NCBI GenBank assembly: GCA_043228905.1
Contig: JBHGNT010000010.1
Coordinates: forward strand, 16,120,001 to 16,184,000
Direction of reading: 5' to 3'
Source of the DNA: Azolla caroliniana
Taxonomy: Eukaryota; Plantae; Polypodiophyta
Length of the DNA stretch: 64,000 nt
The stretch's first letter is position 1, and the number at the start of each line of letters is the position of its first letter. A program made the position numbers and the translations under genes. The notes beneath the pieces are model-generated. The model was not told where the DNA came from and did not search any database. It saw only the letters and a program-made list of their open reading frames with translations. Positions 1 to 60,105 of the stretch are shown here, one piece after another.

Positions 1-154
1 ACACTAAACACGTGGGATTCACAAGATTTATTTCTTGCTTCTCTTTCTACCTATTTCATAACTAGCCTTATATTGTATTCTTCTTTCTCCTAGTCCAACA
101 ACTCAGTGGTTCCCACCCGACTCACGCAACGATCCGGAGCCGTAAGGCACGACA
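1..154 (+). repeat. 5' LTR of element A (3' part only)
   Basis: Near-identical to 26111-26264; ends ...GACA just before the PBS. Confidence 0.9.
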
Positions 155-159
155 CAAAG

Positions 160-176
160 TGGTGAACCCGACGTGA
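160..176 (+). other. Primer binding site of element A, complementary to the tRNA-Trp 3' end
   Basis: TGGTGAACCCGACGTGA is the reverse complement of ...TCACGTCGGGTTCACCA, the plant cytosolic tRNA-Trp 3' end as recalled. Confidence 0.85.
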
Positions 177-193
177 AACCGGGTGACAAGGAG

Positions 194-1110
194 ATGGAAA
201 ATCAACCGGGGTCTAACAACATGATGGCGATGTTTGAGCGGATGCTACAAGAACAACGCGCAATGTCAGAGATTGCGGTGGCAGTAGAGCGGCTCGTGCA
301 ACAGAACGGGCAATTCAACGGGAAAGACGTGTCACGATATTTGCGAGATTACAAGGCGGAAATGCTACGGTGCGGGATTTCGGAAGGACTGCAAATGACA
401 TCCTTCAATCGGGTAGCGACCGATGGGCTTCAAGGGAGTATCCACGAGATACGGCAGCAAAATCCGACGTGGGAGGCATTTGAAGACGCGCTAAAGACCA
501 CGTTCTCCATCGAGGACTCCTCCAAGGCAACGAGGAGGAGATTTGAAGATTGGGTAAAAACACCGCATAAGGGGATGAAGGTCCTCGATGTATTTTCTTC
601 ATTCGAAAGTCGGTTCGGGAGGTTTTCTACGAGAGATCAAGCTATCCTCGCACCGGACAAAGTGATCATGTTCCTACGAGCCGTGGACATTCGGGACCGG
701 AAAGATCTTGGAGTGCTTTTGGAGGACATGACCACTAAGAGTGGCCTCACCAAAACATGGGAAAGCGTGTGGGATATCATCGCGTGATACACGAAGATGG
801 GGCAATGGCTTGCTAATGAAGAAAAGAGGGTTTCAGAACCGATTCCGAAAACAAGATCCGGACTGGAAGACCATCAACCGCGGGCTCAGGAGACTACAAC
901 CGAGAAGGGAATCGACGCAACCACGGTGGAGCAGTTGCTGAAGGAGATGGAGAATCTAAAAATCGCGATGGTGAAGAAGTTGGATGACTGTCCCACAAGC
1001 TCCAAGTACATGGACCGTCGGTGCATATGGTGCGATAGCACCCAACATGATCGGAGGGATTGCTATGAGCACAAGGAAACGTTACGACGGGATCTTATCT
1101 ACTACGATGG
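194..1110 (+). pseudogene. gag: Element A gag, 5' part (capsid region, degenerate Zn knuckle), premature TGA at 785-787
   Basis: ORFs 173..787 and 797.. share a frame; GQFNGKDVSRYLRDY motif and CIWCDSTQHDRRDC knuckle. Confidence 0.85.
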
Positions 1111-1131
1111 TGAAAACGTAAGTGTTTGTGG

Positions 1132-1781
1132 TGTCGAGGTATTCCTCGCGGATGCGTGGAATGAGGCGGGACCTCGGGGGTCTTGTACCGAAGAGCAAGA
1201 GAGAAAGGAGAAGGGAAGGGACCCACTAGGTGCGAGCGTAGATCCACAGGGACACGGCCCTTCGACACGAAGACGCGAGCGGGAGACCAACACAGAGAGA
1301 CACGAAGGTATGTATGTATATATTAACAAAGGCAAACAACAAGAAGCACGAAGTCGGTTACAACCGAACAGGCCGGCGAACAGATGCCGATGCCTGTTCG
1401 CAAACTCTCAGAAAGAAAGGAGTAGGTTGGAGGTGCTGCCGGAAGCACTCGGGCATTCCTCAGAGCAGCGTGAGCCTCCCCGAAACCCTGCACTGAAAGA
1501 AGCTACGGAGTATGGAAGAGAGAGAAGCCTTCAACCGAAAACCCGACAGCACTTCGTCCTCTCTGATTCCTCGATGATCCCTTCCTCCTCCCCGTCTCCC
1601 TCCTTTTATAGGCAAGAAAGGAGTCGTTTCCCATTAACTTCCTACCTACCGAATCTACCTACCTAGGATCTTCTATGTACCCAATTCTCTCTTATGTACA
1701 ACATAAGATGTTCGTGCATGAAGAGCCGGTTCCTACGTTCCGGTGCACCGATTCCGCTTGTGGACGGTTTTCTTCACGACA
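1132..1781 (-). repeat. 3' LTR of element C
   Basis: Direct repeat of 7480-8129; minus-strand TATA (CTATAAAAG) near 1604-1612. Confidence 0.95.
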
Positions 1782-1854
1782 TCCGCCCCCACCTAACCGC
1801 GCATCCACCGGCATGCACCAAATTGAGTTGGGACGGAGAAAACCGGTCCAGCCT

Positions 1855-4800
1855 TCATTCCCCGCCCGTCGGTTCTTCCTTGGTTTCGGATCGTTCGTCG
1901 TCGCGGTCCAGGTTAACCGGATCCGGCTCGTCGTCGTGACGCTTCTTGAACGCTTTGATCCGCTTCCTAGCTACCGGTATCGTCATTCTCGTGCCGTCGA
2001 GTTCCGCCAGATGGTACGTCCCGTTGTCGTTGGTACTTTGGACCACGTAAGGCCCGAACCACCTTCTTGCGAACTTCCGTGACGCTCGGTGCTGGTTGTC
2101 GAGGCTGCTGTCGTAGACTAGCACCCAGTCGCCTTCCTCGATCTTCTTTGGTCGGAGCCGGTGCGTCCGGTCGAACCGGGCTTTGTTCCTCGTCCTTGCC
2201 ACCCGAAGCTTTCTCGCGGCCTGTTCCACATCCTCTGGTCTTCGCTCGAGCTGTCGTATGCGGGCCGCCAACAGTTCCTCCCGGCTCATCTCGTCTTTCC
2301 AGTCCACGGTTGCCCATGAGGAGATCGTACGTTCCATCGGCATGATCAGCTTCTGCCCAAACATGAGCTCTGCCGGCATGAATCCCGTTACCGAACTATG
2401 CGTAGTTCGGTCCGCCCACAACGCGTAAGGCAATAGCCGCGGCCAGTTCCCGACTTGTCCTCCGCATGCCCGAACTAACGCCTTGACGATCGGTCCGTGT
2501 CCGCGCTCCACCTTCCCATTCGCCTCCGGATTGTACGCAGTGGTAAGCGAGAGCTTGACTCCCAGCCGGTCGAACAGCTCCTCAGCCTCTTCGGCGTCCA
2601 ACTCCCCACGATCAGCCACGATCTTCCCGACGCACCCGTACCGGCATATCACGTCCTCGATCAAGAACCGACATACGGCCGCGGTCGTTTTGTTCTGAAG
2701 GGCTCGGCCTTCCACCTGGTTCGTCAGATCTTCCCGAGCCAAGACCAGATACCGCATCTGTCCTACTCCCATCGGCATCGTCACCAGGTCTACCATCCAT
2801 TTGAAGTGGATGGTCGGAGGGTACGTAGGGTGAAGCTCGTCCCGATGTCGGACTATGGAGTGCATCTGACAGCTCTCGCAAGTTGTCACGAACCGATGCA
2901 CGTCCCGGTACAGTCCCGGCCACCAGTACTTCCCCTTTATCTTCTCGAACGTGGCCCACGTTCCACAGTGTCCAGCCCAAGGGCTATCGTGGTAGGCCGT
3001 CAGCAGCTCCTCCTGTTCTTCCTTCATCGCCACCACCCGGAGCGGGACGCCGTTCCTCTTCTTCGGGTGCTTCCATAAGTATCCGTCCCGGAGAAAGAAT
3101 CGGTATGCTTTCTTCCGGATCCGGTTGGTCTCGTCCCTTGTCCATGACGCATCCGGCGTCATGGTCCTTAAGAACCCACCGATCTGTAGCCACTCGCCGT
3201 CGTACTTGCTCTCGTCGAAGCCGTTAAGTGCCGGAGTGCTCGTCCCATCGGTCGTCACGTACGCTGCCTCGAAGAAGTCCACCCCGACTTCTTCGTCCTC
3301 CGAAACCATGCCGCCCTCGTCATCAAACCTCGCCCTCGAAAGCATGTCGGCCATGGCGTTGTCTTTTCCGAAAATGTGTCGTATTTCCGGGTCCAGGGAT
3401 TTGATGTACGCTATCCACCTGAGCATCGCCAGGTCCGGTGTCGCGCATCCGGAAACCATGCCGAGAATTGGTAGGCAATCCGTCTCGATAATCACTTATG
3501 TCCCGATCAGGTAGTCTTTGTCGGCCTTTACTGCCGAAACGATACCCCAGAGTTCGCGTTTAACCTGGGCGTACCCTCGTTGTCGCTCACTGAGGACCTT
3601 TGCGCCGAATCAGATCGGGAACCGAATGCCGTCCTCCTTTTCTTGGTTGACGACCCATCCGATCCCGGTCAGACTCGTATCCACCGTTATGTATACCGGG
3701 GTACCCTTCTCGTAGACAGCCTTCCGGAGCGCCGGTGTTGCTCGTCCCGCCACTCGAATTTTCGCCCCTTCTTCAACAACCCGTATAGCGGTTCCGCAAC
3801 GTGGGCGTAATGCGGGATCCATATATGGTAGAATGCACATGCCCCCAGGAACCTCCGAACTTCCATAACCGAGCTACAGTCGGTCTTCATCGCGGAGATG
3901 GCTTCTACCTTTGCCGAAGACGGCTTCCGGCCATATGGTCCACATAGGTGTCCGACCACCAGGATTTCTGATTGCCCGAAGGCCGATTTCTCCCCGGAGA
4001 AGGTGAGCCTCGCACCCTCTATCCTTTGTAGCACCCTCTCGCAGTCGTCGATGTGTGTTGCCACGAATCGCCGGCATCCGTCCGGCCCGAGTGTCTCGTC
4101 CTTCCCTTCCACCGGGCACCCCTTGATCGGGATATCGTCTAGAAACGGCATGGTGATGTCCGGGATGCAATCCCTTAGTACTTTGTTCATTGCATTCACC
4201 ATGTGGGCCACCGAGTTGGTACCCCCTTGTGGCAGGGTACACATTCGCACTAGGCCGAGGGGAGTTCGCATCGTCGTAATGTCTCTGCTCTCCACGGCTA
4301 GCTGGAACTGGTCGTACCCCGAGTACAGATCACCGACCGAATAAATCGACCTTCCGGCGAAGGCCTCCGCGAACTCGTCTATGGTCGGTCCAATTCCTGC
4401 GTTCCGAATGGTCACTCTGTTGACCGGCTGCAGGTCTTGAATGAAGCGCAATGTTCCGTTTTTCTTTGGTACGGTAAACCATTGGTTCGAGTATGGGGCA
4501 CTTGACGGTTCGAGAATGCCCATATCGACTTTCTGCCTCAATAGCTCCATCAACTTCGGGATGTGAGCTCTCGGTACTGGAATCAGCTTGAGATTCCACG
4601 GCACATGCGGTACCGTGAATATCACCATCGGCTCCACGATTGTCGGGTCTACGCACCCGATCTCTTCCGGTGAGAATGCGAAGGCTTTCCCGTGCCTTCC
4701 GAGCATCCTCCGAAACCGGTCTTCCTCTGCCGGCAGTAGGAACCCACCCCCACCGATTTTGAGCTCCCAGAGCGTCCCGTTGGTGGAAGGTGTGTCCTAT

Positions 4801-5319
4801 GCAGACCGGATCTCGCAAACTGGGGTCCGACGCAACCCCTCTAATCCGGGACTCGCTGCCCTCCGGTAAGGGTGCCGCGACTGGCCTTACCTTCCGGTCC
4901 ACAGTCTTCTACTTCGTGCTAACCCGGGCCGTCCGATCCGGCTCGAGCCCCTGACTGAAGTTCGCGATGACTTCGTACATCTCTTCGGAACATACCGGTA
5001 TCGTCCGGTCTTCGTTAAGGTCTTCTCCGGCTACCTTCCTCAGCATCCCCAAGGTGTCGTCGAAGGAGACCGCCTCCACGGCTCTGCTGATTTCCTCGTC
5101 CGGGCCGAGAACTCCGCACGCTCGAAGTCGCTCCTCTGCCCTTGCCTTTTCTCGGCCAACGATGCCGACTATCATACACCCTCCGTCGTTGGAGAAACAA
5201 AAAATTTTACCCATCGTACAAGGTTTCTTCGGTTTCGGTTCTATCGTACAACTGTGGGGTCTTTCCCGAGTGTCCGGACTGTCTCGGCCCCACGCCTTGG
5301 CAGCCCTCTCTAAAAATCC
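1855..5319 (-). pseudogene. pol: Element C pol (linker-RT-RNaseH-integrase) with a few stops, frameshifts and a small deletion
   Basis: ORFs 4909..5214, 3687..4706 (DLYSGYDQ, LPQG, FLDD), 3610..3840 (TVDTS RNaseH) and 1855..3495 (HHCC zinc finger, VDLV...DRGE...E core). No chromodomain. Confidence 0.9.
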
Positions 5320-7436
5320 TCCCGGTTCTCGCCACCGAGGGATTCACGGTTTCGCTCGTGGTTCGGTCGCACCGTCAGAAATTGGACCGAATGGCGCCCG
5401 TCCTGGCTTTTGACCCTCGCGTAGGCCGAACCGTTGTCTAGCACCTTGGTCTCCATCCGCGCCGCCGTGATGTATGGTTCCCCTAATATGACCGGGTGCG
5501 AGGACGTCTCCTGTACGAAGAAGTGCTGGTCAATCTCGACGTCGCCGATCTTGACTCGCACGTTCGGGCAGGCCCCGTGCAGTTCCTCGGTGGCGCGCAT
5601 CGCCGCCCGTATCTTCCACCCGTGCTTGGTGTTGATCGGCCACTTTCCCTTCTTATAGAAGTCCATGGACATCAGGTTTATTTCCGAACCGTGGTCCACC
5701 AGTGCCACCACCGGTTCCTGAACATCTCCGATCTTTACCGGGGTCTCCGTGGTCGCTCGGGCCCAGTGCGGCCTTGCATAGTGGCTCTCCGCCCACTCAT
5801 CTTCCAGCGCCATGTCGTCGATGTGCGACGTCCGCACCTCCACCGGTCTCTCCGGTTCTGTCTCCGTCGACAGCCTCTTCCGCTTCACCAAGTCCACAAT
5901 GGAGTCGTGGAACTCCTTCTTAGCGATCCCTAGCACCTCCCGCAATGGCAGCTCCACTTTGTTGTCGAGGATCCGTTCTTCTAGGACCTTTCATAGGTCC
6001 GTGGTCCTTTCTATTTCCGTCCCCAGTCGGTATCCGCCCTTCCTGGGGTTATCTTGCGCGCTGGACCCACCGGCATCGTTCCGTTGTTGCCCGAATCGGG
6101 TCTCGTATCGTTGTGAGGGCCCGGCCGCTCCGGCTTTCCCCACTCGTTTGTCTTCTACCAGAGCCTCGTAGTTCCGGCAGGCGGCTTCTACGAAGCCCGT
6201 CTTCTCCTCGACCGGGTCGCTTCACCCGGTTATTTCCCGGACCCGTCTCTCAGCGCGGTCCGCTTCATCTTTCCTCAGCCGTGCGCCGGCGAGGCCTTCC
6301 AGCATTGCCGACCAGAATCCGTCTTTGCTCTCCTTTCGGGCCTCGCTGCCCCCGACCCGAATGCCGGCCGACGCCGAGTAGTGGATGGCCTCCACGTGTC
6401 GGGCCGTTGCCTCTTCCATCAGTCTCTTCATACCTCCTCGCCCGTCGTTCCGGTTTAGGGCCCTTCTGGTATCGCCGGCGTGCACCCGGCCTTCCCATAG
6501 GTATACCACCCGGTTCCTCAACGCCTCTGCGAAATCGCCGCAGTCCTTCCGGATGTGGCCGACCTCGTCGCACCACATGCACCTGTTCCCTGCTGCCGGT
6601 CGTTGGTCACGAGCCGGTTCGCTGCCTTCCCTTCAAGTCTGGGCGATCTAGAGATCCTTTATAGCCCGCGTCAACTCCTCCAGCGCTGCTCCTCCGGACG
6701 AGTCATTGACCATGCCGGTCGGAGCCGAACCGGTTTCGAGCCACTCTCGGGTCTCTGCCCTTCGCCCTTGTGGTGCCGGTTCAAGCCTCCTTGCTGTGAC
6801 AGAGCCCGCTCCGGTCGCCCCGTTGTCAGCCCATTCTCGCCGTTTGTCGAAACGGCCACAGACTCTCTTAACCGCAGCCCAGTCGGTCGTCAGCCCATCT
6901 TTGGTTTCTAGCAAGGAGCCGACTTGATCCCGGTCCCGCTCGTCCACCGACTTGACGAACAGTAGGACCCGGCTCGTATCCAGAACGGTTCGGTCAAGCG
7001 CCGAAAGGCGCGCTAAGCGTTCCTCAAACTCCCGGAGGAGTGCCGACGCGTTTCTTCCCTTGCCGGGGGACTCCACCCATTCCATGAAGTCCCGTTTCGA
7101 AAGCCGGAGCGCGTCGTCCAGCCCGTATTTTTCTAGGAGTCGGCCTTCGAACTCCTCCCAAGTACGGCTCTCCGCCCGTACCTCGAGCACCTCCGCATGG
7201 ATGCTCGGCATCGCCACTCGAGGGAACCCGGCAAGACGCCTCTCTTCCGGAATGTCCCGCATCAGCATTTCTGCCCCATAGGACGCCAAATACTTCGTGG
7301 CATCCTTTCCGCTGAACCGGCCGATCGTACCGACGACCACCTCAATGGCTCTGTCGAGGGCGCCGGTGCCCTCCCGCGCGCTCAATATCCGATCCACGGC
7401 CGAAGCCATGGCCTCCGCAAGATCCGACCCCTTCAT
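5310..7436 (-). pseudogene. gag: Element C gag-protease ORF with nonsense mutations; ends EDF-stop at the frameshift site
   Basis: ORFs 6648..7616, 6222..6578 (CMWCDEVGHIRKDC) and 5310..5957 (ALVDHGSEIN, VILGEPY). Confidence 0.88.
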
Positions 7437-7459
7437 CTTCTGCTCTTCTCCCGCCTCCT

Positions 7460-7476
7460 TCACGTCGGGTTCACCA
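7460..7476 (-). other. PBS of element C (tRNA-Trp)
   Basis: TCACGTCGGGTTCACCA on +, 3 nt from the 5' LTR. Confidence 0.88.
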
Positions 7477-7479
7477 AGA

Positions 7480-8129
7480 TGTCGAGGTATTCCTCGCGGA
7501 TGCGTGGAATGAGGCGGGACCTCGGGGGTCTTGTACCGAAGAGCAAGAGAGAAAGGAGAAGGGAAGGGACCCACTAGGTGCGAGCGTAGATCCACAGGGA
7601 CACAGCCCTTCGACACGAAGACGCGAGCGGGAGACCAACACAGAGAGACACGAAGGTATGTATGTATATATTAACAGAGGCAAACAACAAGAAGCACGAA
7701 GTCGGTTACAACCGAACAGGCCGGCGAACAGATGTTGATGCCTGTTCGCAAACGCTCAGAAAGAAAGGAGTAGGTTGGAGGTGCTACCGGAAGCACTCGG
7801 GCATTCCTCAGAGCAGCGCGAGCCTCCCCGAAACCCTGCACAGAAAGAAGCTACGGAGTATGGAAGAGAGAGAAGCCTTCGACCGACAACCCAACAGCAC
7901 TTCGTCCTCTCTGATTCCTCGATGATCCCTTCCTCCTCCCCGTCTCCCTCCTTTTATAGGCAAGAAAGGAGCCATTTCCCATTAACTTCCTACCTACCGA
8001 ATCTACCTACCTAGGATCTTCTATGTACCCAATTCTCTCTTATGTACAACATAAGATGTTCGTGCATGAAGAGCCGGTTCCTACGTTCCGGTGCACCGAT
8101 TCCGCTTGTGGACGGTTTTCTTCACGACA
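7480..8129 (-). repeat. 5' LTR of element C
   Basis: Direct repeat of 1132-1781. Confidence 0.95.
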
Positions 8130-8524
8130 GCGGAAAACGTAAAACAGAGAACAACACACAGGGAGAGAGAGAGAGCGAGAGAGACAGAGAGAGCAGAACA
8201 CAATTTCCAAAATTATATCAAGACTCTGTACTACACACTGTGCTAAGTAACACTATTTATACAAGTCCTCTTGGGACTGACAGAAGTACCATGTACTTCA
8301 ATGCTCACACGAGCATCTGACACTTACTACGAGACTATAGATACCTAGTAGTCTATCCTATTCTAGGCTTCCGATTGGACTACCGGTTACGGATTGCACC
8401 CGGCCTCCACTGCTTGCCGGTTCGGTTGCTCACCGTCATACCGATCTGTTTCGCCCGATCCGTCTCGCTTACCGGCTCCGGCTTATTCAGCCGATTCGGC
8501 TCCGGTTGAGCTTGCCGCTCAACA
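8130..8524 (-). repeat. Main part of the 3' LTR of Copia B (the remaining 21 bp lie at 1111-1131)
   Basis: Matches 13673-14067; adjacent to PPT TTGAGGGGGAG (- strand). Confidence 0.93.
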
Positions 8525-8542
8525 CTCCCCCTCAAGCTCAAC

Positions 8543-11500
8543 CTAAGGTGGGGTCGTAGTGTCGACCTCTGTGGCAGTCGGTTCTTCCAACCGACTTCTC
8601 CTGGCGTCACTCCGCCTTGCTCGCGCTCCTCGTCCGGTCCGGTCCCGTTTGCCGCGACCCCTTTGGTTCTGCGCGCCTCGACCCTCTTGGTCGGTATGTC
8701 TGCTCAATAGGCCCATCTCAGCAGTCACGTTGTTGTGACTCCGGCGCTTGCCGATCCGTTGGTTTTCCCACGATGGCATCGACTTCCGCTGTGTCTGTGT
8801 CCCCTTGGCCTTCAGTCGATCCGACTCATCCGGGTCCATCTGTTGATCCGAGTTAGCTGTATCCAACTCGTTCCAGCTCTTGTCCGAATCGGTACACTCC
8901 GATTCGACTTCCGGCTTCAGGCCTCTCACCACATCGGACCACTTCCGAGTCTTGGCCTTCTCCATGCTTCCCTCGGCTTCTTCAGCCGGTGAACCGAAAT
9001 CGAATTCTCCATTCGACTCCGCATCATGGTCAGTACCGTCGTGATGACCTCCGCACAGCATGCACTTCTCTTCCTGAGTGCACAACTCTTCTTCACAGCC
9101 GCTTGCTCCGACCTGTTCGGATGTGTCGACTTCCTTCGTCGACTCGGCTTCCTTCATCTTCTTGTCTCCTCTTCTTCCGGCTCTCCTCTTACCGACGGGT
9201 TCAACAGTTTTTTTGCCTTTGCCCGTTTCGATAGGGATTTTGCCCTTGCTTCTCCCCCTCAAGTGTGGCACGTCGAGACGCTGAATACCAAGCATGTCGG
9301 TAAAGTGCTGCAACTTGTCCGATCCGAGCGGCTTGGTGAAGATGTCGGCAACTTGCCGATCCGTATGAACATACCGTAGGTCAACTTCACCGCTCAGGAC
9401 CCGCTCACGCACGAAGTGGTAGTGCACCTCGATGTGCTTTGTGCGAGCATGGAACACAGCGTTCCTGGCGAGCTGCAGGCTGCTCATGTTATTGCAGTAA
9501 ATCGGGATCGGGGTCGGCACCTCGATCCGCAAGTCTCGCAGCAGTCGCCGAAGCCAGATGGCTTCACAAGTGGCAACGGTAGCGGCCCGGTACTCAGCCT
9601 CAGTGCTTGACAACGCCACTGTGGGCTGCTTCTTGTTGCTCCACGCAACGGCCGCGCTACCTATGGAAAACATGTATCCGGAAGTGGAGCGGCGATCAGA
9701 CGCATCGCCGGCCCAGTCAGCATCGGTGTAACCGACAAGCTCTTCGGGTATACCTCGCCGGTATAGCAGTCCCCGGTCCTTAGTGCCGCTGACATACCGT
9801 AATATTCTTTGCGCGCACTGAAGGTGCTCCACGGTCGGCTTCTGCATGAACTGACTTACCATGCCGACCAGATAGCTGATGTCGGGTCAGGTGATGGTTA
9901 AGTAGATCAGGCTTCCGACAACCTGTCGGAACCGTTTCTCATTGCAGGCCGGTCCGGAGTTGGGACGGAGCTTCTGGTTCCGATCCAGGGGTGTGGAGAC
10001 AGGTCGGCAATCCAACATGCTGAACTTATACAGCATATTCAACACGTAATGTCGTTGTGAGAGAAATATGCCGTCGGGGGTCCGGATCACTTCGATCCCA
10101 AGAAAATAATGGAGGTCCCCCAGGTCCTTCATTTCGAATGCGTCCGACAACTGGGACTTGACGCGGTTGATTTCGAGAAGACCCGGTCCGGTGATGACTA
10201 AATCATCCACATACAAGAGTATACATACCGGACCGTCAGAGCCTTGCCGGATGAACAACAAAGAGTCCGACTTAGAGACAGCAAACCCCAGCTTACGCAA
10301 CCGGTGCGTGATCTTCGCGTTCCAGGCTCGGGGGGCTTGCTTCAAGCCGTAAAGCGACTTCTTCAATCGGCATACTGCCGACTTGTTCATCTCCGAGTGA
10401 AATCCGGGGGGCTGAGTCATAAAGACTTCTTCTTCAAGCTCTCCTTGAAGGAAGGCGTTCTTCACATCCATCTGGTGAAGATGCCACCCCCTTGCCGCAG
10501 CAACCGCCAGTACCACACGAACCGCCGTCATCTTCGTCACAGGAGCGAAGGTCTCATCGTAGTCGATTCCGTGGGTCTGCGCGTATCCCTTCGCCACTAA
10601 CCGGGCTTTGTACCAGTTAACAGAACCGTCGGCGTTGTACTTGACCTTGTACACCCACTTGCATCCGATCGGTTTACAGTGACGGGGAGGATCAACTAGG
10701 TCCCAAGTTTCGTTGGCATCGAGTGCCCGCATTTCTTCGTCCATAGCGGCACGCCAATTTGCGTCCTTTGCCGCTTCTGCGTAGCTCTTCGGCTCGCGCA
10801 CTTCTGTCACCTTAGTCATGTACGCATAATGATGCGCCATGTATTCATTGTACCTGTACCGCACGACGGGATCCTTCTGACGGGTTGATCGGCGCAACAC
10901 ACCGTCACCTGAATTGAGGCCCATCTTGGCCAGTTCGGTCTTCGTTGCCGAAGATCTGCCTTTCTCCTTTCCGGAGTCAGATACGCACCGATCCGACTCA
11001 TCGTTGCCGGTTTCGAATTCCGGCAGCTTCCTCTTCCCCTTCTCTTTGCGCGTGAACCGTTTCCTCGGTTCCTTGCGCGGGGAGAGCACGGTAGAGTCTC
11101 CACCACTTGCCGTCTCTTCATCTGACTGGTCCAACCGACCCAGTCGCTCATTCGGTCCACTCAACTGTAACGATTCCGGACTCTCATCTTGAGTCCCGGC
11201 TTCATCATCCTCTGCCAGGGCTGATTCAGGCTCACTGGCCTGATCTTCCGGCATTGGGTCGGGATCGGAAGTCGGAGTCGGTACGGAGTACCAGGATGCC
11301 AATTCGTCAAACTCGACATCCCGGCTAACTCGGACTTCCTTCGTCCGGGGGTTATAGCACTTATACCCCTTTTGCTCTTCAGCATAGCCAACTAGGATGC
11401 ATTTTTCCGATTTTGCATCCAGCTTTCTCCGCTTCTGATCCGGCACATGCACATACGCTATGCTGCCGAATATCCGAAAGTGTCTCAAGTTCGGCTTGCG

Positions 11501-13561
11501 CCCAAAATACAGCTCATGAGCTGACACCTTGTCACCAATGCGGTTTTGTATGTAGACGGTCGTCTGGACCGCCTCCGCCCAGTAGAACCAGGGCATGGTC
11601 TTCTCCTCCAGCATTGTCCTCGCCACTTCGACGAGTGTCCGGTTCTTCCTTTCGGCCACACCGTTTTGCTCCGGTGTGTATATGCAGCTGACCTCTCGCC
11701 GAATTCCCTTCTGTTGCAGATAACGAGTGAATTGGCCGGAAAAATATTCCTTTCTGCCATCCGACCAAAGGCATTTGATCTTCCTCTCCGATTCCCGTTC
11801 CACCATCTTCTGGAGGCTCCGGAAACAGTCGAAGACTTCGCTCTTCCGCTCAATGAGGTAGATCCAAGTATGTCGAGTATAGTCGTCGATGAAGGAGACG
11901 AAGTATCGGCTCCCGCCAAGGCTTACACTTTGTGCCGGTCCCCACACATCCGAATGGATGAGATCGAGCTTGTTACGGCTCCGGTTCCGTTCGGTGGGGA
12001 ATGGAAGCCGGTGCTGCTTCCCAAGTTGGCAGGCTTTACAAATTTCGGCTCTCCGGCCGCTGAACTTCGGCAAACCGAAAACGACTTGTTTCGTTTGCAG
12101 ATCTTGAAGCCTCCGGTAGTTGACGTGGCCTATCCGCTTGTGCCACAGGTTGATGTCCGACTCGACCTTCTGTCGTTTCGCGAACAGAGCGGTGCCAAAG
12201 TCATTGGTGTCGAGGATAAACATCCTCCCGTCTCTGCGCCCTTGCGCAATGACTTCGCCCTCATCCTCAATGAAGCACCCGAGGTGCATAAACCGCACCT
12301 GCATCCCCTGGTCGACAATCTGACCGACGGACACCAGGTTCTTCGTGATCGTCGGAACGTGTAACACGTTCATCAGCTTCCCTTTCTGTCCGACGTGGCT
12401 TAGAGGGACTTCTCCGACGTGCACGATTGGGTGAGGAGTGTCGTCTCCGGTTTCGACTACTCCTGGTTGATCCAGTCTCTCCAGAAAGGAGAACCACTCT
12501 TTGTGGCTCGTCATGTGGTTCGACGCGCCGGAATCAACATACCACACTTCCTCCGATTTGGAAGTGGTCTTCTTCATTGAATTTGCCTTGTGATTCATCA
12601 CCAAGGCTGGCCCCTTACCGGCCTTTCCGGTTCCGGATCCTCCTGATCCGTTTGCGTAGTGCGAGTTTTGCCGGCCATCCTTACCGGTCTTGGCAGATCC
12701 GGATTTGTCCGAATCGGCACGCTTTCTCCAGCACTCGCTTTCCCTGTGGCCTTTTTTGCCACAGTACCAGCATTCCGTAGCGGATTTGTCTTGCCGGCCT
12801 CCGGCACCGCCTTGACTCCCCCTGCTTGTGGAAGTCCCGGAACTACTGTCGGCACACTCATAGTACCTCCGTTCCTGCTCTTGCCGGCCGCCTCCATTGT
12901 GTGCCGACCCACCTCTTCCACCACGCCCACAGTGCCGATCCGTTCCCGTGTACAGCATTCGGCTGTCCGGAGATGCACTAGTAGATGCACCGGCGTGGTT
13001 CTCCTCTACAAGGAGCATCAACTGTAAGTCGAAGAATGAGGGGGTATTCTCCCTTGTACACACCGCAGTCCGGAACGCTCCGAACTTGGACGCCAGGCCT
13101 CCGAGACATACTTGCACCATCTCGTCTTCCTCTACGGTAACATTGATAGAGGGGAGCGAGTCGCAGATCTCCTTTATCCGGCCCGTGTAATCTGCTACGG
13201 ACATGTTCTTTTGTCGAACATTGCTCAACTCCTGTCTGAGTTGCAGCTTCCGGGCAGTGGTGCTTGCGGCAAAAACCTTTTTCAGGTTCCCCCAAGCATC
13301 CTTCGGTGTCTTGGCGTCACGGATGTGGCTGAGCAGCTGATCGCCGACACTGGACGTGAAGCAGTACATCACCCTGCTTTCCGCCTGTTCCCATACCGGG
13401 AAGTCCTTGTGTGCCGAGTCTGGCGCCCCATCATTCACTCCTTCGACATAACTCCAGTACCCGTGTCCAAGCAGGTACTAGTGCATCTTGTAAGACCAGG
13501 ATGCGTAGTTGCTCCTGTCGAGCTTCTCCACCGGGAGCGACGTAGCCATGCCTCTATCCAT
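8543..13561 (-). pseudogene. pol: Copia gag-pol polyprotein with two in-frame stops (13478-13480, 9887-9889) and a ~235-aa C-terminal extension
   Basis: KLDRSNYASW N-terminus, CWYCGKKGHRESEC, WYVDSGASNHM, WHKRIGH...C..C, IHSDVWGP, KARLVAKGY, LLYVDD, YTDADWAG, TKHIEVHYHFVRE, ADIFTK. Confidence 0.93.
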
Positions 13562-13642
13562 GTCTTCTACTGTGTCTGTTCTCGACCTGTTAGGGTTTTC
13601 TTCTCAAGAGTAAATGTCTGCAGCAGAGGTTCTCAACCCTCG

Positions 13643-13655
13643 CGCTCTGATACCA
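13643..13655 (-). other. PBS of Copia B (tRNA-iMet)
   Basis: TGGTATCAGAGCG on the minus strand, directly next to the 5' LTR. Confidence 0.92.
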
Positions 13656-14067
13656 TGAAAACGTAAGTGTTTGCGGAAAACGTAAAACAGAGAACAACAC
13701 ACAGGGGGAGAGAGAGAGAGAGAGATACAGAGAGAGCAGAACACAATTTCCAAAATTATATCAAGACTCTGTACTACACACTGTGCTAAGTAACACTATT
13801 TATACAAGTCCTCTTGGGACTGACAGAAGTACCATGTACTTCAATGCTCACACGAGCATCTGACACTTACTACGAGACTATAGATACCTAGTAGTCTATC
13901 CTATTCTAGGCTTCCGATTGGACTGCCGGTTACGGATTGCACCCGGCCTCCACTGCTTGCCGGTTCGGTTGCTCACCGTCATACCGATCCGTTTCGCCCG
14001 ATCCGTCTCGCTTACCGGCTCCGGCTTATTTAGCCGATCCGGCTCCGGTTGAGCTTGCCGCTCAACA
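13656..14067 (-). repeat. 5' LTR of Copia B (412 bp)
   Basis: TGAAAACG...CTCAACA; matches the split copy. Confidence 0.95.
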
Positions 14068-14612
14068 GATCGAAATCGGATCCATTCGATGGACTCTCAA
14101 AAGCCACTCCGACCAAACTTTCGAAAAGGCGGCATGAAGAAGGTTGTAGAGGAGGAGATCGCGGCGAAAAACAACTATGCGACAACCGTGGGAATACGTG
14201 TGGGGGAGTCATCTGGAGCAAAGGCGTCTTTTTGGCCAGAAGCAAAGAAAGCCGACCATGATGACATCCGAAGCGCCACAGAATGTATCCGGGAAGCTAC
14301 GGGATGGGAGTGTCCCGTAGATAAGAATAGCGTACATGTGCTATGTCAATTGCATGAAGTGTATGTGGATGAACAACGGCGGCGCACGGATGATGCGGCT
14401 GGACCATCAAAGACGCCGGAGAGCTGGAACTCCGAAGGGAAGGGGAAAGGAAAAGCAATTCTGGCATTCAAACTCGCTTCGGACATCGAACAACAGACGA
14501 ACCTAAAGAAGGTGTTTGAAGAGAGAATCCTTGATAGTCGGGTGGAATTTTCGCTTCGGGAATTACTCGGAATAGCGAAGAAGGAGTTCCACGACCTTCT
14601 TGTGGATCTCAT
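14068..14612 (+). pseudogene. Element A gag-PR linker, middle part
   Basis: ORF 14089..14661 (FSLRELLGIAKKEFHD) is homologous to element C LPLREVLGIAKKEFHD and continues the 797-1110 frame. Confidence 0.85.
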
Positions 14613-15674
14613 TGTCGTGATGATCCGTCACTACGCACGGATCGTGAGGCGGAACCGCTAGGGTTCTGGACCGGAAGGACTCGAAGTTGGCGCAAGCTTT
14701 AGCGAGAAAGGAATTAAGATAGATTGAAAGAGAGAGATTGAGATAAGATAGAGCGCTTGATTTTAGATTGAGAGAGAGATTAAGAACTCTTGACTTTAGA
14801 TTTCAAGAACAAGGTATATCATCCAAAGGATAACGAATTTTCTTCTTAATATTAATTTTGATTTAAAGTACAAAGCTTTTTTTTATCAAAAAAACCCCAT
14901 TGATCTTTTTTTTCATTCCCTCTTTTATAGATGCCCTCATGCATTTGAGGGTTCAAGACATGCATAAAATGCATGTTTGCCATTTGGCACTCATGTATTA
15001 CATGTGGTGCATGATAACCATGTCACTCATTTTAGCTCTCATGTATGAGAATTTATATGTAAAAGTAAAATGATATAAATATAAATTCAACTAAATGTCA
15101 TAGCTTAGTGGTAAGCCTATTGACTCTTAACTAAGAAGTGCAAGGTTCGAATCCTCACTTGCCCTCCTTGTATATTATGTGATATTTATTTATTAATTTG
15201 GTCGCCGATTGCCGGTTCCACCGGCTCGCTGGCTCCGTTTCCGTCGGATGACGGTTCCGCCGGATCACCGGCTCCATCGTCGGTCCAGTTTTGGTTGGCC
15301 AAAACCTTTACAAGTAGCTAGGCCACCTCCACTCTTAGTTCAAGTTACCTTGAACTCTCTATTCTCCACACATAGACACAAAGATAATAACTTTTGCTCC
15401 ACCTTATATATGGTGAGAGCCTTATTCGTCCTGTCTATGTGGGATATCTCATAATTTTCTCTTTTTCTTTCGCAACTTCTTACCCACATAAGTTGACACT
15501 TAGATGTCTGTTTCTTATGTAGTAAAGTGCACCTCTTCAAGATCTTCGTCTTTTATACTAAGATATTAAACTTACTTAGAATTAGTATATTCACTATTAT
15601 TGTTTTATATGATTGACACTTGATTTTGTACGTTTTATGTGATTTTCACACCATTGCCAAAAATCTTCACGACA
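14613..15674 (-). repeat. 3' LTR of element D
   Basis: TGTCGTGA...TCACGACA; similar to 20008-21150; minus-strand TATA near 14924-14931. Confidence 0.9.
15094..15165 (+). other. tRNA-like Pol III module (A box + B box) in the U3 of the D LTR, antisense to the element
   Basis: TAGCTTAGTGG at 15101 and GGTTCGAATCC at 15144. D-arm GCTT/AAGC pairs; anticodon and acceptor stems are poor. Confidence 0.7.
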
Positions 15675-17972: not shown

Positions 17973-19959
17973 TGTCGTGAAGATCCGTCACTAGGCGCGG
18001 ATCGTGAGGCGGAACTGCCTGGGTTCTGGACCGGAAGGATTCGAAGTCGGTACAAGCTTTAGTGAGGAAGTATTTAAGATAGATTGGGAAAGACAGAAGT
18101 TGAGATTAAACGCTTGAACTTCGATTGAGAGAGATTGATTGCACTTTTATCTTTAGATTTAAGAAACAAGTTACACGATCAATTCGATAGCGAATTTTCT
18201 TCTTCTTAATTTCATAACCAATCCCTTCTTTTAAAGATGCTCTCATGCATATGATGCATGTGAGGGTACAAGACATGCATAAAATGCATGTTTGCCATTT
18301 GGCGTTCATGTATTACATGTGGTGCATGATAACCATGTCACTCATTTTAGCTCTCATGTATGAGAATTTCCATGTAAAAGTACAATGATAGAAATATAAG
18401 TTCAACTAAATTTCATGGCTTAGTGGTAAGCTAATTGACTCCTAACTTGGAGGTGCAAGGTTCAAATCCTTACTTGCCCTCCTTGTATATGTGTATATAT
18501 ATTTATATATTTATTTATCTCGTCGTCGTCCGCCGGTTCGCTGGATGTCGTCGCCTCGCCGGCGTCAGATGCATTGATTAATCACGGATCGGAGATCAAT
18601 TTGATGTCCAAGGAGTTCTACCGGAAGGGGAAGTGGCCTACAAACACTAACCATGGATGGAAGATCCGAGCAGCCACTAAAGCAACGGAAGATCTATTTG
18701 CGGCTTCTCCGGATCGGCAACATCAAAGAGCTCATGCTAGCATTGATTAATCACGGATCGGAGATCAATTTGATGTCCAAGGAGTTCTACCGGAAGGGGA
18801 AGTGGCCTACAAACACTAACCATGGATGGAAGATCCGAGCAGCCACTAAAGCAACGGAAGATCTATTTGCGGCTTCTCCGGATGTGAGGGTGAAGATCGG
18901 GGATGTCGAGATCGACCAAAATTTCTTCGTACAAGACGAGGTCTCACATTCCGTGATCCTACGGCAACCCTTTATCGCAGCTTCACGGATGGAGACAAAG
19001 GTGCTCGATAGCGGTGTGGCTTTCGCACGAATTCGGAGCCAAAGCGGAGGGAAATCCGTCCAATTCCTAACTGTGCCGGAAAATCATGAAAGGAACAAGA
19101 GAGAGGTCTTGTCCCAAACAAGGATGGATTTTTAGAGTGGACTATTGCGGAGTGGGGAAGTGATAGTCCGAGAAGCCCTGATACCCTACACAGGAAGAAA
19201 ACTCTCGGAGCAAAACAAGTACGAATCGGTCCAGATGGGGCATCTACGTACACGGTCGTAACTGGAGGAAAGAAGAAAGAATACCGAAAAATAGAGGATA
19301 AGTTGCGGTCGGCATCAATAATAAAAGAAGACGAAGAAATCATGGGGGTAGTCAAAGAAGTGTTCTATGGGATCACGCTACAACGGCTTGAAGAGCTTCT
19401 AGAGGATAAAAGCCGAGGAGACCGGGTAGTCCCGGTGGAATCGGTCGAGATGTACGAGATCATTGCGAAAATGGGGTAAGCTAATTGACTCCTAACTTGG
19501 AGGTGCAAGGTTCAAATCCTTACTTGCCCTCCTTGTATATGTGTATATATATTTATATATTTATTTATCTAGTCGTCGTCCGCCGGTTCGCTGGATGTCG
19601 TCGACTCATTTTAGCTCTCATGTATGAGAATTTCCATGTAAAAGTACAATGATAGAAATATAAGTTCAACTAAATGTCATGGCTTAGTGGTAAGCTAATT
19701 GACTCCTAACTTGGAGGTGCAAGGTTCAAATCCTTACTTGCCCTCCTTGTATATGTGTATATATATTTATATATTTATTTATCTAGTCGTCGTCCGCCGG
19801 TTCGCTGGATGTCGTCGCTCTTGAAGACCTCCATCATTTTGTACTTAGATATTAAACTTCTTTAAAATGTTATCTTCACTATTATTGTTTTATGTGATTA
19901 ATACTCGATTTTGTACGTTTTATGTGATTTTCACACTATTGCCGAAAATCTTCACGACA
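17973..19959 (-). repeat. Middle LTR of D: diverged variant containing a 907-bp filler from element A and internal duplications
   Basis: Starts TGTCGTGAAG next to the PBS and ends CTTCACGACA; 19475-19602 and ~19603-19817 repeat parts of 18340-18553. Confidence 0.8.
18571..19477 (+). repeat. 907-bp duplicate of the element A protease/linker region 21333-22239
   Basis: Nearly identical (about 7 substitutions by eye), including the same 169-bp tandem duplication. Confidence 0.9.
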
Positions 19960-20007
19960 TCTCCTCCATCTTCCGTCTCTTCGATCTCACGTTGCACCAC
20001 TTAATTA

Positions 20008-21150
20008 TGTCATGAAGATCCGTCACTACGCGCGGATCGTGAGGCGGAACCGCTAGGGTTCTGGACCGGAAGGACTCAAAGTTGGCGCAAGCTTTAGCGG
20101 GAAAGGAATTAAGATAGATTGAAAGAGAGAGATTGAGATAAGATAGAACGCTTGATTTTAGATTGAGAGAGAGAGTAAGAACTCTTGACTTTAGATTTCA
20201 AGAACAAGGTATATCATCCAAAGGATAACGAATTTTCTTCTTAATATTAATTTTGATTTAAAGTACAAAGCTTTTTTCTATAATAAAAAAAGTCCCATTG
20301 ATCTTTTTCATTCCCTCTTTTATAAATGCCCTCATGCATTTGAGGGTTCAAGACATGCATGTTTGCCATTTGGCGCTCATGTATTACATGTGGTGCATGA
20401 TAACCATGTCACTCATTTTAGCTCTCATGTATGAGAATTTATATGTAAAAGTAAAATGATATAAATATAAATTCAACTAAATGTCATGGCTTAGTGGTAA
20501 GCCTATTGACTCTTAACTAGGAAGTGCAAGGTTCGAATCCTCACATATATGTGATATTTATTTATTTATTTGGTCGCCAGATGTCGTCGGTTACCAGTAG
20601 TTGTCGTCGGATGCCGATGCGCCGGCGCCGGTTACCGTATGTCGTCGCCTCGCCGGCGCCGGATGCCGTCGGATGTCGGTTCCACCGACTCGCTGGCTCC
20701 ATCTCCGTCGGATGACGGTTCCGCCGGATAACCGGTTGCCGGTGTGCCACCGTCGCCGGTCCAGTTTTGGTTGGCCAAAACCTTTACAAGTAGCTAGGCC
20801 ACCTCCACTCTTAGTTCAAGTTACCTTGAACTCTATATGCTCCACACATAGACACAAAGATAATAATTTTTGCTCCACCTTATATATGGTGAGAGCCTTA
20901 TTCGTCTTGTCTATGTGGGATATCTCATAATTTTCTCTTTTTCTTTCGCAACTTCTTACCCACATAAGTTGACACTTAGATGTCTGTTTCTTATGTAGTA
21001 AAGTGCACCTCTTCAAGATCTTCGTCTTTTATACTAAGATATTAAACTTACTTAAAATTAGTATATTCACTATTATTGTTTTATATGATTGACACTTGAT
21101 TTTGTACGTTTTATGTGATTTTCACACCACTGCCGAAAATCTTCACGACA
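20008..21150 (-). repeat. 5'-most LTR of element D
   Basis: TGTCATGAAG...CTTCACGACA, flanked by TSD TCGT; tRNA-like module at 20487-20540. Confidence 0.9.
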
Positions 21151-21897
21151 TCGTGAAGAGAAAAAGACAACATACGGAGGAAAATGCTTCAAGGGTAAAT
21201 ACGAACATGGTTTTAATGAATGACACCGAAGTGGAGGACGAAATTACGAACTCCCACTACACAAGGCCACACTGGGCACGTGCAACTACGGAGACTCCGG
21301 TCCGAATCGGCAACATCAAAGAGCTCATGCTAGCATTGATTAATCACGGATCGGAGATCAATTTGATGTCCAAGGAGTTCTACCGGAAGGGGAAGTGGCC
21401 TACAAACACTAACCATGGATGGAAGATCCGAGCAGCCACTAAAGCAACGGAAGATCTATTTGCGGCTTCTCCGGATCGGCAACATCAAAGAGCTCATGCT
21501 AGCATTGATTAATCACGGATCGGAGATCAATTTGATGTCCAAGGAGTTCTACCGGAAGGGGAAGTGGCCTACAAACACTAACCATGGATGGAAGATCCGA
21601 GCAGCCACTAAAGCAACGGAAGATCTATTTGCGGCTTCTCCGGATGTGAGGGTGAAGATCGGGGATGTCGAGATCGACCAAAATTTCTTCGTACAAGACG
21701 AGGTCTCACATTCCGTGATCCTACGGCAACCCTTTATCGTAGCTTCACGGATGGAGACAAAGGTGCTCGATAGCGGTGTGGCTTTCGCACGAATTCGGAG
21801 CCAAAGCGGAGGGAAATCCGTCCAATTCCTAACTGTGCCGGCAAATCATGAAAGGAACAAGAGAGAGGTCTTGTCCCAAACAAGGATGGATTTTTAG
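21151..21897 (+). pseudogene. Element A protease region with a 169-bp frameshifting tandem duplication
   Basis: HWARATTETPV, ALINHGSEIN (catalytic D replaced by N), ends MDF-stop; 21306-21474 repeated at 21475-21643. Confidence 0.85.
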
Positions 21898-24800
21898 AGT
21901 GGACTATTGCGGAGTGGGGAAGTGATAGTCCGAGAAGCCCTGATACCCTACACAGGAAGAAAACTCTCGGAGCAAAACAAGTACGAATCGGTCCAGATGG
22001 GGCATCTACGTACACGGTCGTAACCGGAGGAAAGAAGAAAGAATACCGAAAAATAGAGGATAAGTTGCGGTCGGCATCAATAATAAAAGAAGACAAAGAA
22101 ATCATGGGGGTAGTCAAAGAAGTGTTCTATGGGATCACGCTACAACGGCTTGAAGAACTTCTAGAGGATAAAAGCCGAGGAGACCGGGTAGTCCCGATGG
22201 AATCGGTCGAGATGTACGAGATCATTGTGAAAATGGGGTTGGATGCGCTCCACAGAAGAAGCAATGGTAAGTACAAAATACAAGACCGTGGAGAAGAAAG
22301 TGAAACCGGCCACGGAACCGTTACCCTCCGATAGCAAGCAAAAGAGGAAAGAAGTCTCGGGAGATCCGACACTTTCGGAAGTCCGTGGATATCAGACATG
22401 CCTTCACGGATGAGACCCAAAAGAAACTTTGGATCGGTGGAGGTGGTTTCCTTTTACAAAATCAAGAAGAATGATTCGTGGGATGTTGGAACAACATGGG
22501 AAAGCATTTGCATTCACATCGAAGGAGATAGGGTGCGTTGATCGAAGATAGTGGAACCGATGGTGATCTTCACGATTGACCATGTGTCGTGGAACTTGAA
22601 GCCGATTCCGGTGCCACAGACGCATATTCCCAAAATCATCGACTTGCTCAAGGAGAAGGTGGCGATGGGGATTCTAGAGCCATCAAACGCTCCGTACTCA
22701 AATCGATGGTTTACGGTTCCGAAGAAGAATGGGTCACTCCGATTTATCCAAGACTTGCAACTGGTGAACAAGGTCACGATCCGGAACTCCGGAGTCGGTC
22801 CAATAGTGGACGAATTTGCGGAAACATTTGTCGGTCGTGCAATATACTCCATCGGAGACCTATACTCGGGGTATGACCAATTCCAACTAGCCATCGAGAG
22901 CCGAGACATCACTACCATGCGGACACCGATAGGATTAGTTCGAATGTGCACACTACCACAAGGAGCGACAAACTAGGTTGCACATATGATGAACGCGATG
23001 AACAAGGTGCTTTGAGATTGCATTCCGGAGATACCGATGTCGTTCCTAGATGACATTCCGATGACAGGATGCACGGTAGAAGAAAAAGATGAAACTATGG
23101 ATGATCGGGGATGCCTAAAGTTTGTAGTCAACCATATTCGTGATTGCGAGAAAGTGCTTCGAAAGTTAGAAGATGTGCACCTAACACTTTCCGGGGAGAA
23201 ATCGGCATTCGGGCAAGAAGAGATATTGGTACTCGGACATCTATGTGGGCCCTACGGCCGAAGACCGTCTCCAACCAAGATCGATGCGATTCAAGCTATG
23301 AAAGAAGTATGCGAGTCATAATCCGAAGTCCGAAGCTTTCTTGGAGCTTGTGCATTTTATCACATATAGATTCCGCACTATGCACATATTGCGGACCCAC
23401 TCTATCACTTATTGCAGAAGGGGAAGAAGTTCGAATGGAAACCGGAACACGCCAAAGCCATGAAGAAGCTCAAGAAAACATTACGGAGGGCTGAAGCACT
23501 TAAGAAGCCGAGCTATGAGCGACCAATCATAGTAATGGTTGATACAAGTCCAACCGGGATCGCATGGGTCATCAATCAAGCCGACTCGGATGGTTTGCAA
23601 TATCCGATCCGATTCGGAGCAAAGGTTCTTAACGAAAGGCAACGCGGATATGCACAAGTCAAAAGAGAATTATGAGGAGTCGTGTCAGCAATCAAATCGG
23701 ATCCAAATTATTTGATTGGAGCCAAAGTAGTGATCGAAACGGATTGTTTTCCGATACTCGGGATGATGTGGTGTTGCACGATACCGGATGTGGCTATGCC
23801 AAGGTGGATTGCATATGTTAAGTCACTTAACCCGGAGGTACGACACATCTCCGGAAAAGACAACGTGGTAGCAGATATGCTATCAAGGGCTCGGTTCGGA
23901 GACGACATAACCGAATCCGATAATGAAGAAGTTTCTGAAGACTACTTTGCTTCGGAGCACATATGCCGGGTGAACGTAATCCGAGTATTCCGGGAAGAAG
24001 AATAGGAGGGAGAAAGCTTGTTGATCGGGAAAGTGCTACAAGAAATGGAGGAATCATCGGACAATAAAGAGAAGAGAGCCGAGATCCGAAGTAAGAAGCG
24101 GCAAGTTCGAAAGTTCTTCTTGAAAAATGGATTAATATGGAGGGAGCCAAAAAGACCGGATGGCATACCACTTTGAGTAGTCAGGACGAAAGAGCAACGA
24201 AACCGGATAATGTCCGAGTTTCACGAATCTGATTGGGCTGGAAATCAAGGGACATGGGCAACTTTTGCGAAAATCAAACAAAAATATTGGTGGAAGAATA
24301 TGTAAAAAGATATAGCGGAGTTCACGGAAAGCTGCGAGAAGTGTCAAATCTACTCCGGAGTTCGACACCGAGATGAGTTACATCCGACATTCTCACCGAC
24401 AATCAACTTCAAATGGATGGTCGACATTGTAGCCATGCCAACCGGGATCGAACAAAAGAAGTACTTGGTGTTAGCTCGGGAAGATCTCACAAACCAAGTA
24501 GAAGGTCGGGCGCTACGAAGGAAAACGTGTTCTACGGTATGCGAATTTCTTTTGGAGGAGGTGTTTTGCAGGTACGGGTGCGTAGGACAAGTGATTGCGG
24601 ATCGGGGAGAACTTGACTCTAATAAAGCTAGGGAATTCTTCACCAAACATGGAGTTCGGTTAACACTAACAACGGCATACAATCCGGAGGCCAATGGGAA
24701 AATCGAACGAGGACATAGTCCAATCGTCAAAGCACTGCATGCAACGGAAGGGCGAAGGATTGACCGCAGATGCTCCTGTATGCACTATGGGCAGATCGGA

Positions 24801-58984: not shown

Positions 58985-59189
58985 CTTGTGATCATCATTT
59001 ATATAGTGGAGTACATCATCATCATCATCATCATCAACAACACACAGACACACACACACATACAAAAGCAAGAGCATTCCCAATCCATCAATCTAGATTC
59101 TTAATTTTCTCACTCTCTCATTTTGCCTTTCTTTTTCCTTCTTCGGTTCTTAATTCCATCCGATTGTATTAACAAATCAATTTGTATGG

Positions 59190-60105
59190 ACCTTATAATC
59201 CTTTGGATAAATTTTTTGTTTTTGTTTTTGTTTTGTTGATTGTTGTTATTATTAAACCATCTTTGTTTGATGTCCGTGATCCACAGTTCAATTCAATGTT
59301 TTACATTTTTTCTTCTAATGAAAATTCAGGAACATTTTGTAGCCAAATATATTGCATTTATGTAATGGTCATTGTGCAATTCCGTTGAATTCCTCAAGGT
59401 TTTATGTATAGACCTCATCCTAATCTGGATAAATTTTTTCTTTTGTTTTTTTATATTGTTATTATTGTCATCATGATAACAAAATGCATCTTTGTTTGAT
59501 TCCCATGATCCATAGTTCAATTAATTCATGTTCTCGTTTTTTTCCTTTTAACGGAAATTCAGGAACATTTTGTAGCCACAAATATTGCCTATATTGTAAT
59601 GGTCGTTGTGCAATTCCATTGAATTCCTCAAGATTTTATGGATAGACCTAATAATCCTAATCTAGATCAATTTTTTCTTTTGTTTTTTTTATTGTTATTA
59701 TTAATATATCATCATGATAACAAAATGCATCTTGGTTTAATCCCCATGATCCATAGTTCAATTAATTCATGTTCTCGGTTTTTGTCTTTTAAGGAAAATT
59801 CAGGAACATTTTGTAGCCAAATATATTGCATATATGTAATGGTCATTGTGCAATTCCGTTGAATTCCTCAAGGTTTTATGTATAGACCTAATCCTAATCT
59901 GGATAAAATTTTTCTTTTGTTTTTTTTATTGTTATTGTTGTCATCATGATAACAAAATGCATCTTTGTTTGATTCCGATGATCCATAGTTCAATTAATTC
60001 ATGTTCTCGGTTTTTGTCTTTTAAGGAAAATTCAGGAACATTTTGTAGCCAAACATATTGCCCATATGTAACGGGCAATGTGCCATTCCATAAAATTCCT
60101 TAAGG
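59190..60105. repeat. Tandem repeat, ~235-240-bp unit, nearly 4 copies
   Basis: AATTCAGGAACATTTTGTAGCCA recurs at ~59323, 59557, 59797 and 60029. Confidence 0.9.

Follow-up and report, generated by a model that had tools for sequence, protein, structure and literature searches.

Gag and protease (PR) lie together in avian leukosis virus, and the slippery heptamer of red clover necrotic mosaic virus is GGAUUUU. In the available passages of one review, the avian leukosis virus protease is in one place assigned to pol, MMTV and HTLV have a -1 shift at pro-pol, and a 2003 survey is cited in which two plant types had split frames, both +1 (PMC5009743). The usual spacer for -1 programmed ribosomal frameshifting (PRF) is 5-9 nt (PMC7618472, section on spacing). 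A -2 slip is optimal with a spacer 1-2 nt shorter than that for -1, and AG_GUU_UUU is the -2/-1 site of PRRSV, according to the parts of PMC7618472 and PMC3458567 that deal with this site. Among plant elements, Ogre and Retand (Tat clade) carry Gag-PR in ORF1 and RT-RH-IN in ORF2, and the ORF organisation of the Phygy lineage was entered as ND, in the available part of Neumann et al. 2019 (PMC6317226). The available text of PMC7466625, PMC11963269, PMC2864245 and PMC3248453 describes no frameshift signal where the protease finishes; the literature searched, mostly outside subscription journals, gave no account of one either, and no paper was found under 'DUF4100'.

Here we analyse element C, located in a window of 64,000 nucleotides of Azolla caroliniana DNA. 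We are confident in classing it as a Phygy-type Gypsy LTR retrotransposon, present here as a broken copy, whose lineage probably uses -1 frameshifting.

Element C and its protease end

Element C spans positions 1132-8129 of the window on the minus strand (6998 bp). Self-BLAST identified two 650-bp LTRs, the 5' LTR at 7480-8129 and the 3' LTR at 1132-1781, which are 98% alike (13 differences). Just past the 5' LTR, the 3' end of tRNA-Trp finds its complement at 7459-7477 (minus strand), the primer-binding site, and this stretch equals the end of genomic tRNA-Trp(CCA) genes at all five loci scanned. A first, stricter tRNA pattern had no genome matches, and a looser one gave 122 tRNA-Trp-like 3' ends genome-wide. 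Such ends also occur in dense tandem clusters (G000 C8:17.79-17.83 Mb, C16:4.96-5.11 Mb and C5:10.10-10.13 Mb). The 4-bp target duplication reads GCGG at 8130-8133 (plus strand), with GTGG as the left copy at 1128-1131, and the empty target site is preserved in the other LTR of the Copia element that hosts element C. The nesting extends over 146-14661: element C sits inside one LTR of this Copia (8130-14067; LTR parts 98% alike), which itself appears to divide a further Phygy-type element within its gag (pieces at 146-1100 and 14053-14661, plus strand).

The gag-protease frame of element C (5310-7440, minus strand, 5' end approximate) encodes a DUF4100-type Gag, a zinc knuckle and the aspartic protease motif LVDHGSE, and contains four premature in-frame stops. 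RT, the RNase H region and integrase follow at 1855-4908 (minus strand), interrupted by frame breaks and stops. Pfam searches with seven ORFs matched RVT_1, Integrase_H2C2 and rve; these ORFs gave no match to a chromodomain or to Pfam RNase H.

The Gag-PR frame ends GAG GAT TTT TAG, and pol lies in the -1 frame. On the minus strand, the slippery heptamer G_GAU_UUU (GGATTTT), in the Gag-PR frame, occupies 5313-5319 and adjoins the UAG stop at 5310-5312, from which a 6-nt spacer (5307-5312) leads to a predicted pseudoknot. Covariation defines the two 8-nt arms of stem 1 (5' arm 5299-5306, 3' arm 5276-5283), and pairing with the own partner defines those of stem 2 (GUGGGG at 5288-5293 and CCCCAC at 5254-5259). 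The initial annotation had read all these parts correctly from the sequence: heptamer, stop, 6-nt spacer, GGGCTG (5306-5301), CAGTCC (5281-5276), GTGGGG, a 16-nt gap and CCCCAC are found where it put them. Its stem 1 of 6 bp, GGGCTG/CAGTCC, has the right arms and is too short, the stem being 8 bp in relatives and 11-12 bp in some families; in element C itself, the longer stem (5306-5299 with 5283-5276) contains one C·A mismatch. Likewise, the -1 frame does run open into the pol linker (4912-5319, minus strand), which is open from the heptamer onward and lacks a conserved AUG, and the ORF at 4909-5214 assigned to it is merely the ATG-started portion of a frame that is free of stops from 5343 to 4912. 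Among the scorable close copies, only element C has the stop at 4909-4911. No Rfam family matches 5100-5450.

The string GGATTTTTRR occurs five times in the window where 1.14 occurrences are expected, a count reached in none of 100 shuffles, and four of the five lie at protease ends. A second family carries the same signal at 21888-21953 (plus strand), with a partial duplicate at 19126, and a third, decayed element has the same heptamer and stop at 37179-37188 (minus strand), with the 5' arm of stem 1 absent. GGATTTTTGA at 49057 was considered as a further signal, had no protease ahead of it and was taken as chance. At 18571-22239, an element of the second family is rearranged and contains duplicated protease-linker blocks, nearly identical to each other, as well as repeats of 169 nt; the window also holds tandem repeats of ~235 nt (59183-60107) and ~200 nt (61919-62308).

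Conservation of the junction in relatives

With its gag stops and pol frame breaks, element C is broken, and its own signal is therefore unusable by this copy. A frame change in a broken copy proves nothing, so we examined whether the junction is shared among copies. GGATTTTTAG is kept in 29 of the 30 closest genomic copies. Eight of these 30 could not be scored for the offset between the protease and KYKTV, a motif preceding RT; the offset was -1 in 21 of the other 22, and the exception is a private 1-nt loss. In the second family of the window, 13 of 15 scorable copies had the -1 offset. A set of 80 metagenome contigs, mostly from one assembly series, covered the protease end in 76 cases and reached RT in 60, of which 55 were at -1, five at -2/+1 and none in frame. 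Protein searches of the genome found no open frame longer than 1040 aa among the 150 + 150 overlapping protease matches listed, so no PR-RT fusion appeared there. L002, L031, L052, L168, L189 and L197 have offsets other than -1; private indels occur in them or every frame carries stops, and we attributed the offsets to decay.

We compared 40 full-length stretches, the copies being picked for long Gag-PR frames. The 16 closest relatives of element C are older (LTRs 96.5-98.8% alike where found) and mostly broken. Among 12 young copies from four -1 families (LTRs 98.9-100% alike), nine have an unbroken pol of 1158-1172 aa that begins 13-37 nt ahead of the stop. The initial annotation had raised the case of intact young copies with PR and RT in one frame; the young unbroken copies keep them in different frames. 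For 31 non-redundant representatives, the pol frame is stop-free for 450 nt past the site in every one, with 4-25 stops in the other frames; upstream, the pol frame closes within 3-114 nt, and the first AUG lies anywhere from 9 to 333 nt. Written as a pattern of 32 places, the signal has 2480 exact genome matches against none for its control, and the common junction persists among families down to ~52% protease identity. One distant protein, P0149 (a single ENA record lacking the start of gag), combines protease and RT in a single ORF, as an in-frame variant or a broken copy. A search of viral_contigs returned no relative. The two-frame layout is thus real and lineage-wide.

The heptamers of the 31 representatives are GGATTTT (25), GGATTTC (2), GGGTTTT (2) and GGTTTTT (2). 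Elsewhere in the protease, Phe codons are TTT in 64 cases and TTC in 88, and G precedes Asp or Gly in 94 of 523. In the X_XXY_YYZ form of -1 PRF heptamers, read in the zero frame, G_GAU_UUU is a published tolerated form. The same site is visible in protein tails. For the 99 sequences with a full protease tail among 120 homologous proteins listed, 70 end in DF, GF or NF, 24 have DF or GF five residues before the end, two end QVFx and three otherwise. The preceding residue can supply the first base of the heptamer in 94 of 94 proteins, against a background of 0.73. Named homologs come from Physcomitrium, Riccia and Adiantum; Gag-PR homologs ending in [DGN]F occur in mosses and a liverwort, with more distant ones in mushrooms, and a search from the distant P0165 gave three proteins. 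Some families (L188, L190, L196, L171, L199; P0032-P0062) have their stop five codons past the slip site, within stem 1 (up to 11 bp). In these families the stop has shifted while heptamer and stems hold register, which points to the heptamer rather than the stop as the anchored element.

In mushrooms, DUF4100 Gag-protease is encoded in an ORF of 750-870 aa that ends past the protease. The 32 mushroom matches comprise 14 that end DF or GF, six with DF or GF 1-2 residues earlier, four with another xF and eight that end otherwise. At protein level, the parallel to the element C lineage is a lead. These basidiomycete DUF4100 elements are perhaps Ylt1-like/SN_1006. The Ganoderma-type proteins P0233-P0236 carry QVF ~17 residues ahead of the end, without a terminal DF; these residues, the same as in the clade described in the next section, may reflect chance or a parallel G_GUU_UUU site.

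The RNA structure was analysed in a nearly ungapped alignment of 33 rows, from which L168, L189, L197 and near-duplicates were left out. The initial annotation had proposed covariation across genomic copies as a check, and both stems bear it out. For stem 1, the 11 pairs tested are 84.8% paired and both sides change at nine of them; covariation is 0.408 against 0.240 after shuffling (reached in 0 of 500, the shuffle ignoring kinship), and slid controls stay at or below 0.17. The first eight pairs are kept in 30-33 of the 33 rows and the last three, outer pairs in 15-18. The partners of stem 2 change together (GUGGGG/CCCCAC, GCGAGA/UCUCGC, GUGAGGGU/ACCCUCAU, CAAGG/CCUUG), and its pairing score is 15.9 with the own partner and 13.6 with permuted ones (0 of 5000, again ignoring kinship), so that stem 2 follows its own loop. 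Taken alone, stem 2 is better than its own shuffles in just 13 of 33 rows (element C, p 0.056). The spacer to stem 1 is 6 nt and ungapped throughout the -1 rows. Because the fold of the 75 nt of element C equals its shuffles (z 0.13), with part of the loop paired internally in the MFE structure, the structure rests on comparison with relatives. Between stem 2 and the 3' arm of stem 1, element C has a gap of 4 nt, more than a classical H-type knot, and long-stem families such as L072 have 0-1 nt. The comparison predicts a local H-type pseudoknot with two covarying stems.

A shorter junction and the routes to pol

In one genomic family Gag-PR ends CAG GTT TTT GAC TAG, and the stems downstream are the same. 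Compared with CAG GAT TTT TAG this junction has one base fewer and a spacer of 5 nt, with the stems and the pol-frame register unchanged; the -1 frame shuts at once, and pol is in the -2/+1 frame. The short clade has 83 exact junction matches in the genome and includes L201-L212 (G000), L067-L076, L167:2836 and L179:2498. Eight of 12 copies compared have a pol of 1164-1182 aa beginning ahead of the stop; their LTRs agree at 96-100%, reaching 100% in four copies. Two metagenome contigs have the short junction and no stop in the pol frame, one of them at an RT distance of 0.2 substitutions per site. Four short-clade rows form a single branch (100/100) in a tree whose root is not established and from which 4 of 38 rows were left out as too short. 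Changes in the linker fall on third codon positions of the -2/+1 frame in 49 of 89 cases. Downstream of the site lie a 12-bp hairpin (z -2.5) and an 8-bp stem 2. RNA reads on this family number 5, 9 and 4, all away from the junction.

For the -1 lineage, we consider it very probable that ribosomes enter pol through programmed -1 frameshifting, with the predicted pseudoknot as stimulator. Paused at the pseudoknot, they would hold GAU in the P site while UUU occupies the A site; the paused tRNAs would slip back to GGA and UUU, and reading would continue G-F-L... into pol. Most ribosomes would terminate at the stop, so Gag-PR would outnumber Gag-PR-Pol, with protease made one-to-one with Gag; this supports the initial annotation's reading of abundant Gag-PR and rare Gag-PR-RT-RH-IN, the rarity being expected from the model. 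The frameshift itself is deduced from comparative sequence evidence.

Other routes account for less of this evidence. That the offset is decay of a dead copy and the motif chance would suit element C, with its several unrelated stops and frame breaks, and deserves practically no credence, since young copies with unbroken frames have the same junction, and so do families as distant as ~52% protease identity. Removal of the stop region by splicing has a precedent in Ogre, which uses such an intron (PMC6317226, part on Ogre). The short clade even carries CAG|GT at its site, and database gene models P0031 and P0144 link PR to RT through predicted introns. However, GT is absent from the site of the common junction, and in all 31 representatives the linker stays open from the heptamer onward and reads as coding sequence. 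Over the junction of a -1 family, polyA RNA of a related organism (mostly 90-95% alike) gave 166 + 107 reads in two runs, at a depth of ~4-15 and in both orientations, and these low-depth reads contain no splice joint and no indel. This is weak evidence against the Ogre-like intron that the initial annotation had put forward as refuting frameshifting, and with the open linker it makes splicing extremely improbable. Gene finders also fuse protease with RT over the junction or run past it in P0031, P0144 and others, which are spurious models. Translation of pol from its own AUG, whether on a shorter RNA or by reinitiation past the stop, with the stems serving packaging or dimerisation, is very unlikely: in-frame AUGs are present in the linker (5214 in element C, for example) and the hairpin adjoins the stop codon, but the place of the first AUG varies over 9-333 nt, and the heptamer that is fixed even at synonymous positions, the spacer that stays at 6 nt and the families in which the stop lies five codons downstream with heptamer and stems unmoved are left unexplained.

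Frameshifting by -1 at the heptamer thus remains the preferred route for the common junction, and the short clade probably needs a -2 slip. A +1 shift would give the same product frame, since in DNA the frames for -2 and +1 are identical, and UUU_U/G permits a forward slip of tRNA-Phe, which is perfect in six-U variants (L179; 7 of 83 genomic matches). Yet 76 of the 83 have UUU_G, where +1 re-pairing is poor, and the stem of the short clade begins within the stop codon. At stop-dependent +1 sites, the stem is not known to start inside the stop codon. A stem 5 nt past UUU is moreover the geometry of a backward slip (PMC7618472, PMC3458567, parts on spacing), and we regard +1 as doubtful. Taking the -1 and -2 readings together, we lean, with considerable reserve, towards an old Gypsy lineage of bryophytes, ferns and mushrooms with a pseudoknot-driven shift past the protease, in which one active clade went from -1 to -2 by loss of a single base.

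Relation to known elements and viruses

Element C fits the Phygy lineage by primer site, target duplication and domain order. Both have a tRNA-Trp primer site, a 4-bp NCGN target duplication (ACGC, ACGG, GCGG, CCGG, ACGT etc. in the copies compared) and an interior filled by the coding region; both lack a chromodomain match, and homologs are named Physcomitrium patens. Phygy is listed at 7.7-10 kb from one species, whereas element C has 6998 bp, its relatives are mostly 7.0-8.0 kb, and they reach Riccia and Adiantum. The analysis supplies an expression strategy for a lineage with thousands of genome copies and an ORF layout previously entered as ND. Among plant retroelements, the border between protease and RT thereby gains a probable case of -1 frameshifting driven by a pseudoknot. 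A Gag-PR stop at the slip site explains the many 700-900 aa 'DUF4100' database proteins that end in DF, and the frame change accounts for the spurious introns that gene finders place at this point.

The initial annotation had set this architecture apart from typical plant Gypsy elements. As to the split between Gag-PR and RT this does not hold, because Ogre and Retand have it; the mechanism does differ. Ogre has an intron and Retand mostly a single in-frame stop, whereas the element C lineage has overlapping frames, a slippery site and a predicted pseudoknot; the non-coding spliced spacer of the Ogre type was not found, the linker being open and coding. Tcn1 and Selgy of non-seed plants also have overlapping frames (GAG:o:PROT), but the break lies ahead of the protease (PMC6317226, entries for these lineages).

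Among viruses, G_GAU_UUU had been taken as an established slip site from a dianthovirus; the heptamer is published as the site of pea enation mosaic virus RNA 2, and G_GA is given for dianthoviruses in general (PMC5009743, passage on plant viruses). Umbraviruses and dianthoviruses share the heptamer and a nearby stop, and they have a stem-loop with long-range pairing where a local pseudoknot is predicted here (same passage). The 6-nt spacer fits the 5-9 nt range of -1 PRF. MMTV and HTLV are retroviruses with other heptamers and require a first shift before pro, and the alpharetrovirus gag(-PR)/pol junction likewise belongs to a retrovirus with another heptamer.

What is new is the clade with AG_GUU_UUU, one base shorter and with pol in the -2/+1 frame, the Gag-PR|RT split being already known from Ogre and Retand. 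If the -2 reading is true, loss of one base at once altered the frame, made the arterivirus motif and cut the spacer by one. A eukaryotic retroelement would then have a natural -2 frameshift that is essential to it and driven by RNA structure, and would offer a ready test for the mRNA-tension model. The paired natural -1/-2 alleles, with the same stimulator and a spacer difference of one base, would make the spacer-tension rule, hitherto shown on engineered HIV sites, testable natively. The arterivirus nsp2TF site has the same eight bases, AG_GUU_UUU, of the form RG_GUU_UUU, and product frame -2. The resemblance is in the slip site only: PRRSV works without a downstream RNA structure, through a C-rich motif and protein trans-activators, and its shifted product is accessory, whereas in the short clade the site is followed by a structure that covaries, and the whole pol lies in the shifted frame. 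The element C lineage thus very likely uses programmed -1 frameshifting, a known mechanism, at a border where it is unusual, and includes a candidate natural -2 offshoot.
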